DNA from: a virus
Taxonomy: Duplodnaviria; Heunggongvirae; Uroviricota; Caudoviricetes
DNA length: 64,000 bases
Reading direction: 5' to 3' (one strand)
Virus record (IMG/VR): IMGVR_UViG_3300006734_000990
Shown here: positions 5,101 to 56,093 of the stretch, piece after piece
Position numbering within the stretch: position 1 is the stretch's first letter
How the letters are laid out: each line of letters opens with the position of its first letter
The notes under the pieces: model-generated
Told to the model about the DNA's origin: nothing
Database searches by the model: none
The model's input: the letters and a program-made list of their open reading frames with translations, nothing else
Program-made: the position numbers and the translations under genes

Positions 5101-5646
5101 ATGGCGCAAACCGCATTCGCTAAGAAGATCTCTGGCAACGACGAGCATTTCTACTTTCAGGCTGGGGGGTATGTTCTGCTAAGGATCTCCAAGACACCCG
5201 GTGAATTCGGATATTCTGTCATGACGGTAACGACAGCGAGCTCAACAGCTGCTGCGTGCAAGGCACCGCATCTGTATGCACCTGAAATCGTTGTTGGCGG
5301 CGAGGCGGCGTCGCTCATGAATATCGACAGTGTTGAGCACTGCAACCCAACCCATGAAAGAGCATATCCGGATGCCGACAAGCTGATCTCAGCCGTATCC
5401 TCCCTGATCACGGTAGAGGAGAATGACCTGCGCAGAGATCCCGCAGGACGCCGCTATATCATCCTGAGCGGCATCACGAGCCCGGCGACAGTTCGCGCCT
5501 TCGGGAATGACATTGCAGATGTTCTTTGCCTTGAAAAGTATGTGGAGCCTTGGGTCTATTCAGAGCGACAGACCACAAGCGAAGATCTACCCGATCCTGC
5601 AAATACCCCCAAGCCGTATCGTTGCCTTGATATCTCCTGCCTCTGA
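5101..5646 (+). CDS. hypothetical protein (181 aa)
   Basis: ORF with coding bias; convergent with next gene. Confidence 0.45.
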   Translation: MAQTAFAKKISGNDEHFYFQAGGYVLLRISKTPGEFGYSVMTVTTASSTAAACKAPHLYAPEIVVGGEAASLMNIDSVEHCNPTHERAYPDADKLISAVSSLITVEENDLRRDPAGRRYIILSGITSPATVRAFGNDIADVLCLEKYVEPWVYSERQTTSEDLPDPANTPKPYRCLDISCL

Positions 5647-5661
5647 CCCCGCGGCCTGTAA

Positions 5662-6546
5662 CTATGCTGTAAGAAACATCCCGCAGGATGCAGCCACATC
5701 CCGGCCGACGCGGGGAACAATCTTTGAGCCCATCAGGGGCATAGCTCCCCCAAGCACCCTCAGAGCTTGCGCGTAGCTTGCGTCGCTGGCCTCGCGGCCG
5801 GTTCTTTCGCTGAAGCTGTTATACCTGACAAGATTCAAGCGTGTTTTCAGGGTGGAATTTTCAAGGAAGTTCCGCAGCGCGACATGATCGCAAAGCCGAT
5901 CGTTCTCTCCTTCAATGAGCGCATGGTGAATAACCACATCCCGTCCCGTCGCGGCCTGCCAATCCTCCAGGCGTGCGAGGGTGGCGTCGGGTGCATCGGC
6001 CTTTGGCAGCCAACGTTTACGGAAGGAGGGCAGGAGGGAGTAGATTGACCAGTAGAAAGTGACCGGGTGGCCCGCGAAAGACTTCACGAGGTTCACATCG
6101 CGCGCGCCAATCGGGAAGATCGAGGAGACATTGATGCGGTAATCGATGCCCCGTTCCTCCGCTGCCGTGCGGATCGGCGCGATAAACCTGTCGAACTCGT
6201 TGCAAAAGTTAGGGTTAAGCAGAGGTTCACCGCGGGCCATCATATTGACGTTCATCCGCGTGACCGGTGCCTTCAGACTGTCGTAATGCTCGATCACCTG
6301 GGAAAACTGCGCGTGATAATCCTCAATCCGCGCCTGCCCCATTTGAACTTCCTTCAACTGGGTTAGATGGCAAAACCTGCAGGCTTGATTGCAACCTGTC
6401 TGGGAGGAGAGATAGGCGATAAAATACTCGGAACTGCGCTGAACGAAACGCGCTTCAAGAGCGCCACCATCTTCGTTTTTCGCAATGAAGTTTACCGAGG
6501 CATCGATCTCAGATGCACGTCTCTGCCACTCGTATGTCATATCCAT
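5662..6546 (-). CDS. RlmN/Cfr-family radical SAM RNA methyltransferase, compact form (about 295 aa; alternative start 6630)
   Basis: SSQTGCNQACRFC (CxxxCxxC), MMARGEPLLN (RlmN GMGEPL), C-terminal NLVRYNSF...RVGRDVAASCGMF matching RlmN NLIPWNPF...RGDDIDAACGQL with the second catalytic Cys; GGAG before ATG 6546; TGCGAAAAG box at 6554-6562. Confidence 0.65.
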   Translation of the reverse strand: MDMTYEWQRRASEIDASVNFIAKNEDGGALEARFVQRSSEYFIAYLSSQTGCNQACRFCHLTQLKEVQMGQARIEDYHAQFSQVIEHYDSLKAPVTRMNVNMMARGEPLLNPNFCNEFDRFIAPIRTAAEERGIDYRINVSSIFPIGARDVNLVKSFAGHPVTFYWSIYSLLPSFRKRWLPKADAPDATLARLEDWQAATGRDVVIHHALIEGENDRLCDHVALRNFLENSTLKTRLNLVRYNSFSERTGREASDASYAQALRVLGGAMPLMGSKIVPRVGRDVAASCGMFLTA

Positions 6547-6671
6547 CTCCTGCCACAGCTTACTTTTCGCAGCTATGCCAGAGAATTTCAGATTACAAAT
6601 GCCAGCCGGTGTCTGCGGCAGTGATCGCAAACATCCCGGACCATGGAAAATTAGTAGCGCGCAGACTTTCC

Positions 6672-6875
6672 CTATGCGTCGGCCCGGGCCTTCTTGGTCT
6701 TGGCTTTCGTGACAGTCTTGGGTTCAACCTCTTGTGCCAGACGCGCCTGGCGCAAACGCTCTGATTTTTCCTGACGTTGAATGGTTTGTGCTTCGATGAT
6801 CTCCAGAGCGGCAGCGGTAGTGCGCTCGGCTTTGGTTTCGCTCTTAGTGGGCGTGAGTGTTTTGGCGGTAGTCAT
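6672..6875 (-). CDS. small basic Lys/Ala/Thr-rich protein (67 aa)
   Basis: ORF only; composition suggests nucleic-acid-binding; weak support. Confidence 0.3.
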   Translation of the reverse strand: MTTAKTLTPTKSETKAERTTAAALEIIEAQTIQRQEKSERLRQARLAQEVEPKTVTKAKTKKARADA

Positions 6876-7119
6876 AGGTTCACTTTCATGATGAGGGCGG
6901 ATCCGCGAAGCTTTCCGAAATGAAAGCGCGTCCCCATAACCATCTAGGTCGATCGGGCGGAAAGAAAACGGTGAGCGTCGTTATCATTACGTGGGAAGGG
7001 GATTTATGCGGCAAATCTAAACAGATTTCGCATCTGCCAGACTTTTGGCTGGCCCCTGCCTTATGAGGGCCATAGCTTGCCCACATATTTTAACGGTTTC
7101 AGTAAGACTTGGGTGATTC

Positions 7120-30676: not shown

Positions 30677-30891
30677 ATCACTGTTTTTTCGCATTGCCTT
30701 TCTGAAACGGATTTCCTAACATCCCCGCATGACACAGGATAAACCCATCTGCGCGATCAATTGGTGGCTGCCTCTCTGAGGCGGCCCAATTCCTGTGACC
30801 AACCCCAGGACCGGCCGCGTGATGCGGCTTGTGATGTCCTGAAAGACCCCTCCCATCATGCGGCTGTCCTCTCTCCATAAAGGACAAGACC

Positions 30892-32028
30892 ATGCAAGAT
30901 CTCTCTACCCTCGAAGGCAAGACCATCCTCACCGGCGACCGGCCCACAGGTCCGCTCCATCTCGGCCATCTGGCCGGGACCCTTCAGGCGCGCGTCGCCC
31001 TGCAGGACAAGAACGACGTGACCATTCTGGTGGCTGATATGCAGGCCCTGACGGATAACGCCGGGCGCGCTGCGGATGTGGCCGCCAATGTGCGCGAGGT
31101 GGTACTCGATTATATCGCGGCCGGCATCGATCCAGACCGGGTCACCATCGTGCGCCAGTCCGAACTGCCAGCCCTCAATGAGCTCACCATGCTCTATATG
31201 AACCTGATCACCGTCCCGCGGCTCATGCGCATCCCGACAATCCGTGAGGAGATCGCCCAGCGCGGCTTTGGCGATGGTACCCCGGCGGGCTTTCTCTGCT
31301 ACCCGGTTAGCCAGGCGGCCGACATCACAGCCTTTGGCGCTGATATCGTGCCCGCGGGCGCCGATCAGGCACCGCTTGTCGAGATCACCGGTGAGATCGC
31401 GGGCAAGGTGAACCGCATGGCAGGGCGCAACTTGCTGGTCACCCCGACCTTGATGCAGTCCAATGCACCGCGGCTGCCGGGCATCGACGGGGCCGGCAAG
31501 ATGTCCAAATCCGCCGGCAATGCGATCGCGCTGCGCGATGGACCAGATGAGATCCGCGCGGCCGTCATGCGGATGTTCACTGATCCTGGCCATCTGAAGG
31601 TCTCTGACCCCGGCAAGGTGGAGGGTAATGTGGTCTTTGCTATGCTCGACGCCTTTGATCCGGATGCCGCAGCTGTAGAGGATCTCGAATCCCAGTACCG
31701 CGCCGGCGGGCTCGGAGACATGGTCCTGAAGCGTCGTTTGGACGGAATCTTGCAGGAGCTGCTGGCGCCGATGCGTGCGCGGCGCGCGGAGCTCGCCTCC
31801 GATGCAGGCTTGGTAGACCATATCCTCGAGGAGGGCCGTAAGCGCGCCCATGTGACCACCATGGAGACCTTGGGGGATGTGCGGCGCGCCTTTGGGTTGG
31901 AAGGGCGCCCAGGGCGCTCTGCGGCACTCACAGAGCTTGTGAGCTTGGGAGAGGACTGCGAGGCGGGAAAGGTCCACGAGGGGCTCGTGGACGCCATTTC
32001 TGCGTCACATACGCGCTTCTCTGCCTGA
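30892..32028 (+). CDS. trpS: tryptophanyl-tRNA synthetase (about 40-aa C-terminal extension relative to compact bacterial TrpRS)
   Basis: HIGH-type PTGPLHLGHLAG, TrpRS hallmark ILVADMQALT (VDxHAIT region), GKMSKSAGNAI KMSKS loop; co-linear with Bacillus TrpRS throughout. Confidence 0.8.
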   Translation: MQDLSTLEGKTILTGDRPTGPLHLGHLAGTLQARVALQDKNDVTILVADMQALTDNAGRAADVAANVREVVLDYIAAGIDPDRVTIVRQSELPALNELTMLYMNLITVPRLMRIPTIREEIAQRGFGDGTPAGFLCYPVSQAADITAFGADIVPAGADQAPLVEITGEIAGKVNRMAGRNLLVTPTLMQSNAPRLPGIDGAGKMSKSAGNAIALRDGPDEIRAAVMRMFTDPGHLKVSDPGKVEGNVVFAMLDAFDPDAAAVEDLESQYRAGGLGDMVLKRRLDGILQELLAPMRARRAELASDAGLVDHILEEGRKRAHVTTMETLGDVRRAFGLEGRPGRSAALTELVSLGEDCEAGKVHEGLVDAISASHTRFSA

Positions 32029-34617: not shown

Positions 34618-34992
34618 ATGGACAAGCGTAAGATCAACGACACACTCCCTGACCAGGTGATGTCTCGGTTGTCGGTGTTCGGGTCTGATATTTCCGCCGC
34701 GCGGCGTGCGCGCAACATCAGCCAAGCTGATCTGGCGGATCGGATCAACGTCGCGCGCCGCACGGTTGTCAGGATGGAGCAGGGTGACGCGCGTGTCAGT
34801 TTCAGCGCCTATGTCTCCGTCGCCTGGGTGTTTGGCTTGGAGGGTAGGCTCTTTGATGCCTTCAGCTCGGAGACAGACCCGGTACAAATTCGCGAAGCGC
34901 GTTTGAACATCCCACGGCGCATCGATGCACCTCGCGGTGCCAGGCACACTGCTGAGACAGTCTCGGCCGACGACAAAGGATTGGATTTCTAA
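34618..34992 (+). CDS. hipB: HipB-like XRE-family HTH antitoxin
   Basis: ISQADLADRINVARRTVVRMEQG helix-turn-helix; TAATG overlap with hipA. Confidence 0.7.
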   Translation: MDKRKINDTLPDQVMSRLSVFGSDISAARRARNISQADLADRINVARRTVVRMEQGDARVSFSAYVSVAWVFGLEGRLFDAFSSETDPVQIREARLNIPRRIDAPRGARHTAETVSADDKGLDF

Positions 34993-36326
34993 TGGAACAC
35001 AAGGCTATCGTATTTCTCGAACTGCATGGCGAAACTGTTCCTGTGGGACGACTGGTAATTACAGAAGACGGGCGTTATTCGCGCTCGGATTTCGACTACG
35101 GCCGCAAGTACCTCGAGCGCCCGGACGCCGTGGCGATCGACCCCGTTCAGATGCCGCTGGGAAAAGAACACCTGCGCACCCATGAGGACTTCACCCTCTT
35201 CAACGGGATCCGGGATGCAGCGCCTGACGCCTGGGGCCGCAAGCTCATCGATCTTTACATGAAGCGCACCGAGGGGCGGGCCGCTTCCGAGGCCGAGTAT
35301 CTGCTGGTCTCCCAGCGCGGGACCCGGATCGGTGGCGTTCAGTTCGGCCCCACCACGGAAGGGCCTGGCCAGATCCTCGATGTGGGCCTACCCGATGTCT
35401 CCTCTGACCTCGGCACGCTCGAAGCCTTCCAAGAGATGGTCGACACCTTCAAAGCCGGCCGTCATGTGCCGGACCACCTGCTTGATCACGTCTCCCCCGG
35501 TGCAGATCTCGGTGGTGCGCGCCCCAAGGGCACGGTGACGATCAATGATCACCCCTGGCTGGCCAAATTCGGCATCGAGAGCGACAGCATCACTATGGCC
35601 GCGGCCGAGGCTGGCTGCCTGGATCTCTGTGAGATGGCAGGACTGTCGGTTTGCGAGCGCGACATCATCGATGTGGCAGGCCGCCCGACCTTACTGTTGA
35701 AACGCTTTGACCGTGAACCCGATGAGAGCGGCAAGCTCCACCGCAGGCATATGATCTCCGGCCTGACCTTGCTGGGCGCCCATGAGATGGACCGGGCCGC
35801 TTCGGGATATGCAGATCTTTATGATGGCATGCGCCGCTTCGGCGCGGCAGACGATGCCGGAGAGACGATCTACCGGCGCATGGTGATGAATGTCCTGTGC
35901 GGCAATACAGATGATCATTACCGCAACCATGCCTTCCTGCTCAATGATGAGGGGCTCTATGTGCCAAGCCCGGTTTATGACGTCACGCCCTCCACTGGCT
36001 TCTCGACCAGCCGCAGCCTCTTCATGCATCTGGGTAAGGCCGGCTGCGGCCGGGATGCGACGCTGGAGAATGCGGTGGCGGGTGCTGCGAGCCTCGGTGT
36101 GTCCCAGGCGCGCGCGACAGAAATCGCTAATGATCTGAGCCATATGGTGGGTAAGAGTTGGCGCCGCGTTCTGTCGGACCGCGGGGCGACGGAAGCGGAC
36201 CTTGAGACGTTGGAGACGAGCTTCTCGGAAGCTGGCCGGTCTGTAGGTCTGGACCACAGCGCAGTGTTCAATCCTTTCGACACTCCGACGCATGACCGCA
36301 AGGGTCCCGCTTTGCCAAATCCGTAA
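34992..36326 (+). CDS. hipA: HipA-family serine/threonine kinase toxin
   Basis: 444 aa; catalytic-loop motif NTDDHYRNHAFLL (HipA N.DDH.KN.S), N-terminal HipA_N-like region; operon with HTH gene. Confidence 0.8.
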   Translation: MEHKAIVFLELHGETVPVGRLVITEDGRYSRSDFDYGRKYLERPDAVAIDPVQMPLGKEHLRTHEDFTLFNGIRDAAPDAWGRKLIDLYMKRTEGRAASEAEYLLVSQRGTRIGGVQFGPTTEGPGQILDVGLPDVSSDLGTLEAFQEMVDTFKAGRHVPDHLLDHVSPGADLGGARPKGTVTINDHPWLAKFGIESDSITMAAAEAGCLDLCEMAGLSVCERDIIDVAGRPTLLLKRFDREPDESGKLHRRHMISGLTLLGAHEMDRAASGYADLYDGMRRFGAADDAGETIYRRMVMNVLCGNTDDHYRNHAFLLNDEGLYVPSPVYDVTPSTGFSTSRSLFMHLGKAGCGRDATLENAVAGAASLGVSQARATEIANDLSHMVGKSWRRVLSDRGATEADLETLETSFSEAGRSVGLDHSAVFNPFDTPTHDRKGPALPNP

Positions 36327-51400: not shown

Positions 51401-51943
51401 ATGAGCAAATGCCCTACCTGCGGTGCAGTATCTTCTGAAGAGAACCAGGCCCCACAAAACAGCGAAGCCGAAATCGTTCTGCGCATCCCCGAGCGGCACT
51501 TCCCGCTCATGCGCAAGACCTTTCGCGAGATGGAAGTGAAGTTGGGTATGCACGGGCTTGGCGAGCTGGCAAATACGCTCAAACCCTATGGGGCCTTATT
51601 TGACAAAGACTTCGACAAGCTGCGCTATTTCAATGATGGCGCATTGGGAATGGTGATGCATGGGATCACGGCCGGCTATCCGGCCGCGGTTCGGATTGCT
51701 GAAGGAAACGACAAGCTCTTCGCTTCCCACGAGCGCGGTAAACGCGTTGCGGTTCATGTCGACTTCACCTTCCCTGACGGTCAGGTCAAACACATGGCGG
51801 TTGCGGAAAGCGCGACGCCTGAGGCGGCCGCCTGGTTCACCGATTACATCAATGATCTCTGCGACAGGCTTTCGCCGCAAAACCCCCAGGGAAACTCAGA
51901 TCAAAGATCGGATATCCAGGAGAACAATGATGCGGGGTTCTGA
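51401..51943 (+). CDS. hypothetical protein with N-terminal CPxCG zinc ribbon (180 aa)
   Basis: KCPTCGA; overlaps next gene start. Confidence 0.5.
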   Translation: MSKCPTCGAVSSEENQAPQNSEAEIVLRIPERHFPLMRKTFREMEVKLGMHGLGELANTLKPYGALFDKDFDKLRYFNDGALGMVMHGITAGYPAAVRIAEGNDKLFASHERGKRVAVHVDFTFPDGQVKHMAVAESATPEAAAWFTDYINDLCDRLSPQNPQGNSDQRSDIQENNDAGF

Positions 51944-53207
51944 AAAGAAAGCCTTTGGCGTTGTCGGCGCCGGCTGGGGCGATGAGGGCAAGGGGCTCGC
52001 CACAGACGCGCTGACAGCACATTTGATGGGGCAGGGGCGCCAAGTTACTGTTGTGCGCTCCAATGGCGGCGCACAGGCGGGCCATGGGGTCACGATGGAT
52101 GACGGTCGCCACCATGTTTTCCACCACATCGGCTCCGGATCATTCCGGGGTGCAGCCACCCATCTGTCGCGCTTTTTCGTCTCCCACCCGATGGTCTTCT
52201 TCTCAGAGCTGGAGGAGCTCGCGCGCAAAGGCGTCCATGACCTGCAGATCACGGCCGATCCGCGCTCTGTGATCACCACACCTTGGGACATGGCAATCAA
52301 TCAGGCGGCAGAGATCGCCAGAGGCGCAGGTAAGCATGGCTCCTGCGGATTGGGTTTCGGGGAGGCACTGGAGCGTCATGAGAAAGGGTCTCAACTCACA
52401 ATGCAGGACCTCTTCTCACCAGGACTGATGTCTCGGCTGGAACAGATTGCCTCGGTTTGGGTGCCTGCGCGACTGGCAGCCTTGGGGCTCACAGATATCC
52501 CGGTTCACTTGAGACCTGTACTGAACAATGCATCAGGGTTCGTCGGCCGGTTTGCAAAAGACCTGCAGAAATATAGCGCGGTCGTCTCTCTCATGTCCGA
52601 TGAAGCCCTGGGAGATTGCGATGCGGTGGTTTTTGAGGGCGCTCAGGGTTTGCAGCTTGATATGGACCTTGGGGTATTTCCCCATGTGACGCGGTCTTAC
52701 ACCGGCGCAAAGAACATGGTCGAGATCGCCCGCGACGCCGGGATCACGGATCTCGAGGTCATCTACATGACCCGCGCCTATGCCACGCGGCACGGGGCAG
52801 GGCCCTTCCCGCTCGATCGAGGCACGACGCCCCTGCCAGGCACCCATGTCATTGATCGGACCAACAGACCAAATGAGTGGCAGGACGCCATCCGCTACGC
52901 GCCTTTGGACCTTAGAGAGTTGGACCGCATCATCTCGGCTGATCTCGCGCGCAGCTGCGGTCAGGGCGTAAACATCGATCATGGTTTGGGTGTTACCTGC
53001 CTGGACCAGCTGGGCGACAAGGTTTTGATGTCTGTGATGGATATGGGGGATGGGCCCTATGTATCGGAGGTCGACACCGAGAACCTCGCGGATGTCATCT
53101 CCGGGCTTTCAGGTCACCCTCTCAAACTCAAATCAGAAGGCCCCTGTGCCGAGAAGGTCGATCTGTCGCTTCTCGCACCTGTTCCTCATGAAGAGCCCTG
53201 TCCCTGA
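51927..53207 (+). CDS. adenylosuccinate synthetase family protein, divergent (PurA/PurZ-like), 426 aa
   Basis: GAGWGDEGKG (PurA P-loop GxQWGDEGKGK), GGAQAGHG, VVFEGAQGLQLDMDLGVFPHVTRSYT (PurA [22 protein letters not shown]), YATRHGAGPFPLD (YSTRVGAGPFP); PurA GATTGRRRR loop replaced. Confidence 0.7.
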   Translation: MMRGSEKKAFGVVGAGWGDEGKGLATDALTAHLMGQGRQVTVVRSNGGAQAGHGVTMDDGRHHVFHHIGSGSFRGAATHLSRFFVSHPMVFFSELEELARKGVHDLQITADPRSVITTPWDMAINQAAEIARGAGKHGSCGLGFGEALERHEKGSQLTMQDLFSPGLMSRLEQIASVWVPARLAALGLTDIPVHLRPVLNNASGFVGRFAKDLQKYSAVVSLMSDEALGDCDAVVFEGAQGLQLDMDLGVFPHVTRSYTGAKNMVEIARDAGITDLEVIYMTRAYATRHGAGPFPLDRGTTPLPGTHVIDRTNRPNEWQDAIRYAPLDLRELDRIISADLARSCGQGVNIDHGLGVTCLDQLGDKVLMSVMDMGDGPYVSEVDTENLADVISGLSGHPLKLKSEGPCAEKVDLSLLAPVPHEEPCP

Positions 53208-53922: not shown

Positions 53923-54342
53923 ATGCCAAGACAGCACGAGTACGCGATCGGGACAGAACAGATGCTTGAGAAGGAGGCTGAACGCGCGCGGCGTTGGAAG
54001 AAAAGAGGGGATGCAATCGAGTACCACCTCATCCGTGGACCGGTTGGGCTTGTGTTACAGGCGGCCTCTCTTATCGTGTTCGTCGCCTGTTTCTATTTCA
54101 TCCAGCTCGACGCACAGAAAGAGCGCTTTGCGGAGCGTGAAACGGCTTTGCTGGAAATTGAAGCGGCTTGCATGGAGCGGGGCGGCAGCTTTGCCTTTAG
54201 CCGGGTCAGCGATGATGTCGGGTATTGCTATGAAAAAGGCGAAAAGGTGATCTTTGAGGTTGAAGGATTGGCAGGCTCGCCGAGTGAATTCGCCATCGCA
54301 GATCCACGCTCTCAGAAAGACAGCAGACAATCGGAGATTTGA
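53923..54342 (+). CDS. hypothetical protein with one TM segment (139 aa); ATG directly preceded by GGGTTTTTCGCA box
   Basis: Direct reading. Confidence 0.5.
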   Translation: MPRQHEYAIGTEQMLEKEAERARRWKKRGDAIEYHLIRGPVGLVLQAASLIVFVACFYFIQLDAQKERFAERETALLEIEAACMERGGSFAFSRVSDDVGYCYEKGEKVIFEVEGLAGSPSEFAIADPRSQKDSRQSEI

Positions 54343-54576
54343 AAATAGCTTGCGGGACGGCATCGCGCTCATGGAGGCATCTTTGAGCGAAATCACCCTC
54401 AGCGTCGAGGAGGAGGTCACTACCTCTGCACAGGCGCTTTCGATGCAGCTGGGCCGCATGGTGAAGATCCCCGCTTGATCGGGGGTCTTTAGGCCAAAAC
54501 CACACATTGCGAAAATAATACTTGCGTTGTGCAAATTCATATGCAAGAACTTCAGTGTAATCAAAGGAAGAAAACC

Positions 54577-54624
54577 ATGTTCCGTTCGCAGGAAGAACAA
54601 TCCGGGTATCGAGAGACGCGCTGA
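54577..54624 (+). other. 15-codon leader-like ORF MFRSQEEQSGYRETR* with strong AAGGAAG SD
   Basis: SD 7 nt upstream; followed by 8-bp stem (54606-13 / 54645-52) and terminator. Confidence 0.4.
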
Positions 54625-54658
54625 CGCCAGAGTTCAGTTTCGCGCCCGATACCCATGC

Positions 54659-54683
54659 ACCCGCCCCTGAGGCGGGTTTTTTT
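54659..54683 (+). terminator. CCCGCC-CCTGA-GGCGGG hairpin followed by TTTTTTT immediately upstream of tRNA genes
   Basis: Perfect 6-bp GC stem with U7. Confidence 0.75.
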
Positions 54684-54693
54684 ATGCCCATAC

Positions 54694-54769
54694 GTCTCCT
54701 TAGTTCACCCGGTTAGAACAGCAGCCTTTCAAGCAGCAGAAACGAGTTCGAGACTCGTAGGAGATGCCA
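54694..54769 (+). tRNA. tRNA-Glu (anticodon UUC)-like, 76 nt, encoded CCA, G1-U72 wobble and an A-A mismatch in anticodon stem
   Basis: Manual fold: acceptor GTCTCCT/AGGAGAT, D-arm GTTC-ACCCGGTTA-GAAC (G18G19), anticodon loop CTTTCAA, 4-nt variable loop, T-arm ACGAG-TTCGAGA-CTCGT. Confidence 0.65.
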
Positions 54770-54782
54770 AAATCACCACCAC

Positions 54783-54858
54783 GTCCGCATAGTTCAATTG
54801 GTTAGAATAGTGCCCTCTCAAGGCACAGACGCGAGTTCAATCCTCGCTGCGGATGCCA
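54783..54858 (+). tRNA. tRNA-Glu (anticodon CUC), 76 nt, encoded CCA, G1-U72 wobble
   Basis: Manual fold: acceptor GTCCGCA/TGCGGAT, D-arm GTTC-AATTGGTTA-GAAT, anticodon stem GTGCC/GGCAC loop CTCTCAA, 4-nt variable, T-arm GCGAG-TTCAATC-CTCGC. Confidence 0.7.
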
Positions 54859-54874
54859 AATTCAGGAGACCAAG

Positions 54875-55225
54875 ATGTTGTCACTGTCGCGCTTTTTTAA
54901 ACGTCGCCCCAAGGCACCTGAGCTGCCTCGCTTTCCAGACCGGGCCGAGGCGGCTGCATGGATGCGCAGCAAGATTGTTCAGACGCGACAGAGGTCACCT
55001 CACGAGGCCCAGCGCCTCTTTGATCCGACATCCGGAGATTACCTGCCCGCATCCGTCCATACAGGATCGTATTTCGATGAAGACGCTCTAGTGGCATATC
55101 GAGCCCTCAAAGCCGAGTTCCCAGATCTTGTTGCGGCCTCATTCAATGAGCCAATGGCATTCTGCGTCTCGCGCATCGCGGACCCGGAAGATCTTCATGC
55201 TCATGCACATCGAATTGGCGTCTGA
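54875..55225 (+). CDS. hypothetical protein (116 aa)
   Basis: ORF between tRNAs and GluRS-like gene. Confidence 0.4.
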   Translation: MLSLSRFFKRRPKAPELPRFPDRAEAAAWMRSKIVQTRQRSPHEAQRLFDPTSGDYLPASVHTGSYFDEDALVAYRALKAEFPDLVAASFNEPMAFCVSRIADPEDLHAHAHRIGV

Positions 55226-55238
55226 AAGGATTTTCACA

Positions 55239-56093
55239 ATGACCTACACAACCCGAGTAGCCCCGTCTCCAACTGGCGACTTTCACATCGGCACAGCCCG
55301 CACCGCCTATTTCAACTGGCTCGCCGCGCGCGCCTCTGGCGGTCGCTTCCTCCTGCGCATCGATGACACCGATCTCGCGCGCAACAACGATGCCTCGATC
55401 AGCGTGATCCATGATTGCCTCGATTGGTTGGGGCTTACGCCTGACGCCGTCTACCGTCAGTCGCACCGGCGCGACATCTATGATGCCGCGGCTACAAAGC
55501 TTCTTGATGCAGGGCTGGCAGTCCGTGCCGACAATGGTGCTGTGCTGATGAAGGGTGGGGCAGCCGCGCCGTGGCACGATCTGATTTCCGGCGACCAGCT
55601 GCCCAGCTCCAAGGCGCATGACCTGGCGCGCGATCAGGTGCTCATCAAAGCTGACGGTATGCCGGTCTATCATTTCGCCTCAGTGGTCGACGATATCGAT
55701 CTGCGCGTGAACCTGGTGATCCGGGGCATGGACCATGTGACCAACACTTTCCGTCATGCGGGGATCTACGCTGCCCTCGGTGCGCCAATGCCGGATTTTG
55801 CCCATGTCGGCCTGATCACCATGGGTGGCAAGAAGATGTCCAAACGCGACGCCGCGGCAAGCCTTCTGGGGTACCGCGATGACGGTGTCGATCCCGATGC
55901 CATGCTGAACTATCTGCTGCGCGTCGGCTGGGGCCCGCGCCAGGATGACAAGTCGATGAAGATCATCGATCGGGCTCGGGCGGTTGATCTGTTTCTGGAT
56001 CACGGCAAGATGCGGTCCTCGCCGGCCGCGATGGATCTGGCAAAACTTGCCAGCTTCGATCGGAAGTACAAGCACATGAAACGGCCTGCATAG
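55239..56093 (+). CDS. glutamyl-tRNA synthetase catalytic domain protein lacking the anticodon-binding domain (GluQRS-like architecture, GluRS-like sequence), 284 aa
   Basis: APSPTGDFHIGTARTA (HIGH), VYHFASVVDDIDLRVNLVIRGMDH, GKKMSKRD (KMSKS), LNYLLRVGW - co-linear with E. coli GltX residues 1 to about 300; stops shortly after. Confidence 0.75.
   Translation: MTYTTRVAPSPTGDFHIGTARTAYFNWLAARASGGRFLLRIDDTDLARNNDASISVIHDCLDWLGLTPDAVYRQSHRRDIYDAAATKLLDAGLAVRADNGAVLMKGGAAAPWHDLISGDQLPSSKAHDLARDQVLIKADGMPVYHFASVVDDIDLRVNLVIRGMDHVTNTFRHAGIYAALGAPMPDFAHVGLITMGGKKMSKRDAAASLLGYRDDGVDPDAMLNYLLRVGWGPRQDDKSMKIIDRARAVDLFLDHGKMRSSPAAMDLAKLASFDRKYKHMKRPA

Follow-up and report, generated by a model that had tools for sequence, protein, structure and literature searches.

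In bacterial glutamyl-tRNA synthetase (GluRS, the product of gltX), the anticodon-binding domain at the C-terminus corresponds to residues 323–468 of the T. thermophilus enzyme. Huge phages with tRNA and aminoacyl-tRNA synthetase genes were reportedly described by Al-Shayeb et al. in 2020. As is generally known, the attenuators of trp, his and pheM-pheST comprise a short open reading frame (ORF) that is preceded by a Shine-Dalgarno sequence and rich in cognate codons, a hairpin, an intrinsic terminator and the charging genes. YadB (GluQRS), a protein of about 290 amino acids (aa) that naturally lacks the anticodon-binding domain, is the only GluRS-derived paralogue in a 2022 review (PMC9437257). 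In this work we analyzed a stretch of 64,000 nucleotides from the IMG/VR record of a Caudoviricetes virus, IMGVR_UViG_3300006734_000990 (hereafter, the window), and revealed in it a cassette containing a Glu-codon leader, two tRNA-Glu genes and a truncated GluRS (hereafter, mini-GluRS). The parts of the cassette follow each other in a defined order, are conserved as a block and evolve under purifying selection, and its leader RNA shows covariation. With moderate confidence, we consider it to be a self-regulated auxiliary Glu-tRNA charging operon of a giant mobile element from marine-type alphaproteobacteria; from sequence and structure comparisons we infer that the enzyme aminoacylates, which tRNAs are its partners, and in which direction and by what mechanism the leader would exert control.

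The cassette is composed of the following parts:

54505–54560, + strand: promoter-like region with the motif TGCGAAAA at 54508–54515 and then a −35-like TTGCGT at 54522–54527, recognized by the position of the motif in relatives
54577–54624, + strand: leader ORF of 15 codons encoding MFRSQEEQSGYRETR, with AAGGAAG on its 5' side and Glu codons at positions 6, 7 and 13
54604–54654, + strand: hairpin A with a three-part stem (GGGUAUCG / CGCG / apical stem), recognized by RNAalifold and covariation
54659–54684, + strand: intrinsic terminator ACCCGCC-CCUGA-GGCGGGU with a U run, recognized by a terminator scan
54694–54769, + strand: tRNA-Glu(UUC), recognized by ARAGORN and Rfam
54783–54858, + strand: tRNA-Glu(CUC), recognized by ARAGORN and Rfam
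54875–55225, + strand: orf116, encoding 116 aa, with AGGAG 7 nt upstream, starting 16 nt past the second tRNA gene
55239–56093, + strand: mini-GluRS, 284 aa, recognized by PF00749, an NCBIfam profile and predicted structure

The three-Glu leader ORF and the terminator had both been noticed in an earlier reading made from the sequence alone (below, the sequence-only reading), and both are present. That reading had mini-GluRS lying immediately 3' of the tRNA genes, which has to be corrected: orf116, with its own Shine-Dalgarno sequence, intervenes. Homologues of orf116 were found directly 5' of mini-GluRS at the related loci L001 (82%), L020 (40%) and L233 (40%) and are absent from other cassettes. 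The ratio of non-synonymous to synonymous substitution rates (dN/dS) of orf116 is 0.20 between the window and L001, and the protein has no match in Pfam, NCBIfam or PDB. The idea that it represents a split-off anticodon-binding domain was rejected because it has no such similarity and is present in just four distinct cassettes.

The TGCGAAAA motif and the −35 box (TTGAC in the relatives, TTGCGT in the window) are co-positioned in L001, L003, L020, L233, L234 and L235. A scan for consensus sigma-70 promoters found none, and we regard 54505–54560 as a putative promoter. Transcription from this one promoter would run through the leader ORF, the hairpin, the terminator, the two tRNA-Glu genes, the optional small ORF and the minimal GluRS.

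According to the sequence-only reading, the 284-aa protein is a GluRS core that ends before the anticodon-binding domain, GluQRS-like in architecture and GluRS-like in sequence. Profile scores and structure comparison agree with this description. In Pfam the protein matched PF00749 alone (E 2e-57). It scored 253.2 bits with the NCBIfam bacterial gltX profile (TIGR00464), below the equivalog cut-off of 289.95; the match falls into two pieces, lacks positions about 100–154 and ends at position 318 of 470. Mini-GluRS consists of the GluRS catalytic core with domain 3; the zinc-binding insertion (pZBD) is missing, and so is the entire anticodon-binding domain. The HIGH-type motif HIGT and the KMSKS-type motif KMSKR are conserved family-wide, and the active-site motifs TR-APSPTG, H-G--R, R-DDTD, V-DD, RG-DH--N and SKRD are invariant over 50 members. 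An AlphaFold model built with an alignment of 50 family members has a mean predicted local distance difference test score (pLDDT) of 94.5. The nearest solved structures are those of bacterial GluRSs, and a Foldseek search with this model gave template modeling (TM) scores of 0.87–0.90 to their catalytic halves. Thus, mini-GluRS shares the catalytic fold and motifs of GltX at about 35–38% identity, but differs from it in its early end, in its score below the equivalog cut-off, and in being encoded on a mobile element beside dedicated tRNAs. It aligns in one uninterrupted stretch with the naturally pZBD-deleted GluRS of Methylacidiphilum (PDB 8jpv), and its deletion therefore matches the pZBD-less type.

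The sequence-only reading had named a frameshifted gltX as a possible source of the truncated ORF. This was ruled out by the uniform length of the family, the strength of selection and the unrelated gene on the 3' side. The best 120 metagenomic clusters of the family (at least 120 exist) all encode proteins of 277–330 aa with 52–93% identity. Between the window and the 93%-identical relative in L001 we counted 94 synonymous and 24 non-synonymous changes, corresponding to a dN/dS of 0.055 at a synonymous divergence (dS) of 0.70. The stop codon lies at 56091–56093, and an unrelated PcfJ-like ORF begins 36 nt later.

Having the same architecture as GluQRS, mini-GluRS might instead glutamylate a modified tRNA nucleoside, as YadB does on the queuosine of tRNA-Asp. 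It does match the GluQRS models (TIGR03838, NF004312-15) with 118–151.3 bits, and its fold resembles 4a91 and 1nzj with TM scores of 0.73–0.78. However, every one of these models scores far under its cut-off (250–453; 151 bits vs. 277 for GluQRS/YadB) and below gltX. The pZBD, which most GluQRS retain (PMC4381286, Table 2), is deleted in mini-GluRS. Furthermore, the partner tRNAs, being tRNA-Glu, have U34 or C34 and so offer no site for queuosine; there is no neighboring tRNA-Asp, and the dksA context is lacking. We therefore place mini-GluRS in a separate lineage and consider such a modifying activity very improbable.

A C-truncated E. coli GluRS specific for tRNA-Glu was reportedly obtained by Dubois et al. 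(2009, in Biochemistry), judging by the title of their article. That enzyme, lacking the distal domain and still specific for tRNA-Glu, is a laboratory construct, whereas the truncation in mini-GluRS is natural, widespread and under purifying selection. Since, in addition, full-length natural GluRSs without pZBD exist and are functional (PMC4381286), it is plausible that mini-GluRS is a minimal active GluRS. Because the complete catalytic core is kept, the most likely role of the enzyme would be to charge the co-encoded tRNA-Glu with glutamate for ribosomal use. It has no anticodon-binding domain and therefore would recognize its tRNAs through the acceptor stem and the D-arm, not through the anticodon.

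Using ARAGORN, we found exactly two tRNA genes in the window, both for tRNA-Glu and both on the + strand. The Rfam tRNA model confirmed them with 52.8 bits (UUC) and 64.9 bits (CUC) at a gathering score of 29. Their structure is as the sequence-only reading described it: each is 76 nt long and has encoded CCA, G1-U72 and a variable loop of 4 nt. In the UUC species we find the acceptor strand GUCUCCU, U2-A71, A9 and the D-stem GUUC/GAAC; in the CUC species, the acceptor strand is GUCCGCA, also with U2-A71, and the D-stem is GUUC/GAAU. The UUC gene is 98.7% identical in L001. It should be mentioned that position 29-41 of the UUC tRNA varies, being A29-A41 in the window, C29-A41 in L001 and U29-A41 in L236. 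The CUC tRNA of L001 (9545–9620) differs from that of the window by 17%, and the divergence falls mainly within a single arm: the whole anticodon arm is replaced (CCGGG-ACCUCAC-CCCGA), while the acceptor, D and T arms are kept.

The sequence-only reading took G1-U72 as the mark of a non-canonical tRNA-Glu. This view had to be abandoned after synteny with recJ had led us to chromosomal tRNA-Glu genes of the host clade. The sequence GGCCCGU...ACGGGCU-G-CCA, i.e., G1-U72 with G73, was found in Paracoccus versutus, Paracoccus sp. SMMA_5 and Pseudorhodobacter turbinis, and both tRNA-Glu genes of Sinorhizobium meliloti have G1-U72 as well. Since the chromosomal tRNA-Glu of Paracoccus, Pseudorhodobacter and Sinorhizobium share this pair, it is the host norm. 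The genes analyzed are located in L227 (1502–1833), L229 (498–572), L230 (5155–5229), L231 (5097–5171) and L232 (2141–2215). The tRNA-Glu gene adjoins recJ in the chromosomes of Sinorhizobium, Sphingomonas, Paracoccus and Pseudorhodobacter; the pair is G1-C72 in Sphingomonas and Methylobacterium, and G1-U72 in Paracoccaceae and Sinorhizobium. The same reading allowed that the ordinary host genes might have G1-U72 and also sit next to gltX. Only the first half proved true: the housekeeping gltX loci of Paracoccaceae have no adjacent tRNA gene.

The tRNAs of the window deviate from the host ones at other positions. They have U2-A71, A9 and a D-stem of the form GUUC/GAAY (U12-A23, C13-G22), while the tRNA-Glu of the host and of most bacteria have G2-C71, C9 and GUCU/GGAC. 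Among the cassettes, two tRNA lineages were distinguished, this "GU" type and a host-like "GG" type whose D-arm is canonical; both genes of the window belong to the GU type. The lineage with the acceptor strand GUCCGCA carries the anticodon CUC in the window, L001 and L236, and UUC in L003, L020, L233 and L234. This switching fits an enzyme that is blind to position 34. Despite it, most cassettes retain a UUC gene alongside a CUC gene, which fits selection for the decoding of both GAA and GAG; the 15 supported genes of the window contain 140 GAA and 208 GAG codons.

In total, mini-GluRS is preceded by two to four tRNA-Glu genes at 13 distinct loci, among them one on a Paracoccus plasmid and others on huge "viral" contigs of IMG/VR. 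At an enzyme identity of at least 64%, tRNA-Glu genes lie directly upstream in eight of nine distinct loci (two or three genes each, window included). Besides the window, these are L001/L002 (93% identity to the window enzyme), L003 of Epibacterium (77%), L236 (75%), L233 of Leisingera (74%), L020 on the Paracoccus ME4 plasmid (72%), L234 of Cereibacter (71%) and L235 (64%); L237 (68%) has no adjacent tRNA gene. The IMG/VR loci L004, L005, L007, L009 and L012, with 50–61% identity, contain two to four tRNA-Glu genes at the same position. The genes that flank the cassette vary among the loci, and therefore the block travels as a unit. The suggestion of a self-contained module made in the sequence-only reading is thus supported.

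Some relatives of mini-GluRS are found near other tRNA genes. In L102, the enzyme gene (443–1264; 44% identical) has tRNA-Gln(UUG) and tRNA-Gln(CUG) directly upstream (252–413) and no tRNA-Glu, and in L006, another relative, tRNA-Gln genes are located nearby (145–218 and 1759–1832). Judging by this neighborhood, some members of the family may serve tRNA-Gln, for example in non-discriminating charging.

The unusual D-arm of the cassette tRNAs also raises the question whether the charged tRNA is used outside the ribosome, as a donor of activated glutamate for some tRNA-dependent transferase whose substrate would be DNA, a peptide or a metabolite. There are precedents: phage enzymes consume aminoacyl-tRNA for DNA hypermodification, Mu Mom using Gly-tRNA (PMC13219725), and class I lanthipeptide dehydratases use glutamyl-tRNA-Glu (PMC9993889). 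Unknown proteins also abound in the neighborhoods of the cassettes; however, no transferase candidate is conserved beside them, and the flanking genes vary. Most copies have both Glu anticodons and normal anticodon loops, as expected of tRNAs that decode and not of simple carriers, and the Glu-codon leader peptide described below points to translation. We consider such a non-ribosomal use improbable.

A homologue of the leader peptide with a Shine-Dalgarno-like motif was found at all 13 distinct cassettes. It follows the pattern ExEQ / EEQ ... (F/Y)RE(R/T)R, and the ORFs have 11–19 codons, two or three of them for Glu. Besides MFRSQEEQSGYRETR in the window, the peptides include ..MFEEQFGFRETRG (L236), MKLEQEQMGIV (L003), MRREQEQLGIE (L020), MLRLEEPKGIV (L235), MMNKCEEQRRGTE (L004), MSSFLREYEQRNFRERL (L007) and MNSSNLHESEQRNFRERR (L009). 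Thus, the peptide is recognizably the same even in distant low-GC cassettes of IMG/VR (L004, L007 and L009). A six-frame motif scan of 1.69 Mb of loci detected the leader at 13 cassette entries (12 distinct loci) and seven times elsewhere, the latter probably by chance; the 13th cassette, L235, has a variant without Q. In the aligned leaders, one GAA codon, 6 nt 5' of hairpin A, always occupies the same position. Leader and terminator of the window are 96% identical to those of L001, though dS of the neighboring gene is 0.70.

Eight loci of the alphaproteobacterial type share TGCGAAAA, a TTGAC-like −35 box, the Shine-Dalgarno-like motif, an ORF of 11–15 codons, hairpin A and a terminator of the form ACCCGCC-loop-GGCGGG-U6-7. 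In the window, hairpin A overlaps the last six leader codons and the stop codon, and in these loci the leader stop always lies inside it. The hairpin predicted by RNAalifold contains 17 pairs, five of them with compensatory changes; 97% of the cells are paired, compared to 30–41% in slid registers, and the covariation score was reached by none of 500 shuffles. Its 5' arm is conserved though translated in different frames, two in all. With a covariance model trained on the eight leaders, the element was detected in L004, which had no part in the training (E 4e-6), and at no other place in the window. Hairpin A is conserved in sequence beyond the needs of pairing, which fits its recognition by a macromolecule. 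The terminator is kept in the eight loci and in L004, i.e., in nine of the 13 distinct cassettes. Its U run ends 9 nt before the first tRNA gene, so that the tRNAs must be transcribed through the terminator; a separate tRNA promoter 3' of the terminator has no room there and gave no match.

This arrangement corresponds to a leader-peptide attenuator placed before an aminoacylation operon. Expression of the cassette would probably be tuned to the level of charged tRNA-Glu. With a ribosome stalled at the invariant GAA codons, 6–9 nt 5' of hairpin A, the hairpin would stay folded; a ribosome that reaches the stop codon inside hairpin A would melt it. The state of the hairpin would then alter the passage of RNA polymerase through the terminator located 9 nt before the first tRNA gene. 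We suppose that the folded hairpin may act in cis, with RNA polymerase or a bound protein as its target, and thereby allow read-through.

Compared with classical attenuators, the Glu leader has only two or three regulatory codons, no detectable mutually exclusive antiterminator, and tRNAs among the controlled genes. A classical antiterminator was sought and not found; 1:3 or 2:3 pairings seen by eye reached at most 4–6 bp. A T-box riboswitch (with its specifier loop and UGGN bulge) or another Rfam element was likewise not found in the leader: in an Rfam E-value search of 54300–55300, only the two tRNAs and a weak terminator-like match were obtained.

Several observations weigh against the proposed regulation and against charging in all copies. 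Constrained folding of the eight alphaproteobacterial-type leaders revealed no mutually exclusive antiterminator pairing, and in minimum-free-energy structures of all eight the terminator persists whether the ribosome is placed at the first or second Glu codon or at the stop. Two or three Glu codons are far fewer than in classical attenuators, and in L005, L007, L009 and L012 the second hairpin (hairpin B) has no U run. On the side of the tRNAs, the window tRNA-Glu(UUC) has an A29-A41 mismatch in the anticodon stem, noticed already in the sequence-only reading, and the CUC tRNA of L001 has an aberrant anticodon loop with C33; some cassette copies may thus be less than fully functional. Finally, many family members at 50–55% identity or less have no adjacent tRNA-Glu.

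Considering the missing antiterminator, the small number of Glu codons and the lack of a U run in the four distant cassettes, one could suppose that the leader ORF with its hairpin and terminator represents an unrelated small gene or small RNA that only travels beside the tRNAs, and that the tRNAs and the enzyme are expressed constitutively by leaky read-through. Such a gene would, however, have to be confined to tRNA-Glu cassettes in constant order and orientation, with Glu codons at a fixed distance from hairpin A, and to have a Trp-codon counterpart before the trpS gene of the same element. We therefore regard an unrelated leader as quite improbable. The gating of read-through by the leader, proposed in the sequence-only reading, is thus backed by peptide conservation, hairpin covariation and the trpS analogue, but lacks a recognizable antiterminator/terminator switch.

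This trpS gene, full-length and located at 30892–32028 of the window, scored 224.6 bits at a cut-off of 176.75. Upstream of it, at 30729–30779, lies a 16-codon ORF encoding MTQDKPICAINWWLPL, with two adjacent Trp codons and its stop within a conserved hairpin, GGCUGCCUC-UCUG-AGGCGGCC. Trp-codon leaders, with the Trp codons at a fixed position, precede trpS in four of four loci: the window and, just upstream of position 6001 in each case, L238 (MENASISLVHLWWPAL), L239 (MEHTRILPAFWRRPL) and L240 (MDKIATLLTRASWLPL). The trpS leader provides independent support for amino-acid-specific leaders on this element. Both trpS and mini-GluRS were found together on at least five contigs, of 535398, 1824351, 1120264, 449438 and 23247 bp. 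Single-sequence patterns revealed no relatives of this tryptophanyl-tRNA synthetase (TrpRS) in IMG/VR.

The window also encodes a hipB-like antitoxin (34618–34992) followed by a HipA_C kinase (34992–36326; PF07804, E 7e-39). The pair follows trpS at a distance of 3 kb and precedes the Glu cassette by 19 kb. The sequence-only reading called HipA a neighbor of mini-GluRS; at this distance the link is circumstantial. The hipBA pair was rejected as a part of the cassette, as related loci show no such pair conserved nearby.

Two kinases of the alphaproteobacterium Caulobacter crescentus, HipA1 and HipA2, have GltX and TrpS as their phosphorylation targets, and overexpression of either synthetase lowers persistence (PMC7029023). 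The element family pairs precisely mini-GluRS and TrpRS on shared contigs and, in the window, encodes a hipB-hipA pair (34618–36326). One may therefore ask whether its own GluRS, tRNA-Glu and TrpRS serve counter-defence, resisting or titrating HipA-family kinases of the host or of competitors. Yet the hipBA pair is distant from the cassette, and none was found within 6 kb of trpS in L238–L240. Mini-GluRS still has the target serine in its KMSKS loop (S201, invariant), so that no resistance is evident from the sequence. The RF-1 and PTH2 genes at related loci (see below) fit a general translation toolkit. A role in counter-defence seems to us unlikely; it concerns the reason why the module exists and is compatible with its function as an auxiliary charging operon. 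The most extended version of this idea, which we also consider doubtful, is that of a natural anticodon-blind and largely orthogonal GluRS/tRNA-Glu pair, switched on by a novel Glu-tRNA-sensing leader in which a leader peptide and a cis antitermination hairpin replace alternative pairing; this pair, together with the Trp-leader TrpRS, would sustain translation when HipA-type kinases or other attacks disable the GltX and TrpS of the host.

In a search of 185,579 species-representative genomes, we found a close relative of mini-GluRS at just three loci; the remaining matches were ordinary gltX with 33–41% identity. The best of the three is located on the 535 kb plasmid unnamed1 of Paracoccus sp. 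ME4 (CP151277). Named carriers of the family include Epibacterium, Leisingera, Paracoccus and Cereibacter. At least 14 relatives with 47–61% identity were found in IMG/VR on tRNA-rich contigs of 54–608 kb. Nucleotide and protein searches of deposited phages and PLSDB plasmids gave no close match to the window or the enzyme, and the protein search of phage records returned ordinary gltX alone, with at most 36% identity. A scan of metagenomes with the family alignment yielded mostly housekeeping gltX, as its patterns were too generic. More distant and shorter GluRS-like proteins (about 250 aa, 32–36% identical; L190–L224) are common on IMG/VR viral contigs of 8–480 kb, most of them without a tRNA gene within 3 kb.

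Most genes of the window are hypothetical. Only two of ten large proteins matched PHROGs, both families of unknown function; we can only say that the element is a giant mobile replicon, plasmid or phage. Related loci contain further genes of translation and replication, encoding a PTH2-type peptidyl-tRNA hydrolase, RF-1/PCRF fragments, a DNA polymerase III beta clamp and an NAD-dependent DNA ligase (L237 8207–8587; L240 1437–2138; L236 659–1795; L234 16668–18770). The beta clamp, ligase, RF-1 and PTH2 genes fit a very large, semi-autonomous replicon. On the simplest reading, with RF-1/PCRF and PTH2 genes present at related loci, the cassette is carried as part of a translation toolkit.

Two other features of the window should be mentioned. 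A divergent homologue of adenylosuccinate synthetase (PF00709, E 3e-45) is encoded on the + strand at about 51927–53207, and in L001 at 5615–6892; it scored below the purA cut-offs and weakly matched the phage PurZ model (37.6 bits). It adjoins a gene for a YgjV-like membrane protein on the opposite strand. The 8-mer TGCGAAAA (complement TTTTCGCA) occurs at 32 sites in the window compared to 3.07 ± 1.71 expected, a number reached in none of 100 shuffles. The sites (e.g., 886, 23481, 30686(−), 53915(−), 54508, 56122(−), 58734 and 59120(−)) mostly lie just 5' of gene starts, beside −35-like TTGAC boxes. The motif looks like a putative element-wide promoter or operator for some factor.

The searchable literature on truncated phage or plasmid GluRS, GluRS paralogues, Glu leaders or attenuators, and phage aminoacyl-tRNA synthetases and HipA contains no description of this family or operon. 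Its ingredients are known: huge mobile genomes with synthetase and tRNA genes, GluRS paralogues that are truncated, and an aminoacyl-tRNA synthetase operon under leader-peptide control; new are their combination and a leader without an antiterminator. Like huge phages, which are large mobile or viral genomes with tRNAs and aminoacyl-tRNA synthetases, relatives of mini-GluRS occur on tRNA-rich IMG/VR contigs, of 250–600 kb. Here, by contrast, the genes form a fixed operon that has leader control of its own and a minimized enzyme and is found also on a plasmid-annotated replicon.

If active, mini-GluRS would be a natural class I synthetase cut down to its catalytic core, with dedicated tRNAs and no reading of the anticodon. 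It would then bear on the evolution of GluRS, whose primordial form is believed to have been the catalytic domain, and genetic-code engineering would gain an attractive scaffold for pairs that are orthogonal or anticodon-independent. We know of no earlier attenuator-like control responsive to Glu-tRNA; the Glu leader would be the first, and it departs from the textbook antiterminator design. The presence of the Glu leader with mini-GluRS and of the Trp leader with TrpRS on the same giant elements suggests that these elements monitor and buffer the charging of specific tRNAs, and the two synthetases are possibly the very ones that HipA kinases target in alphaproteobacteria.

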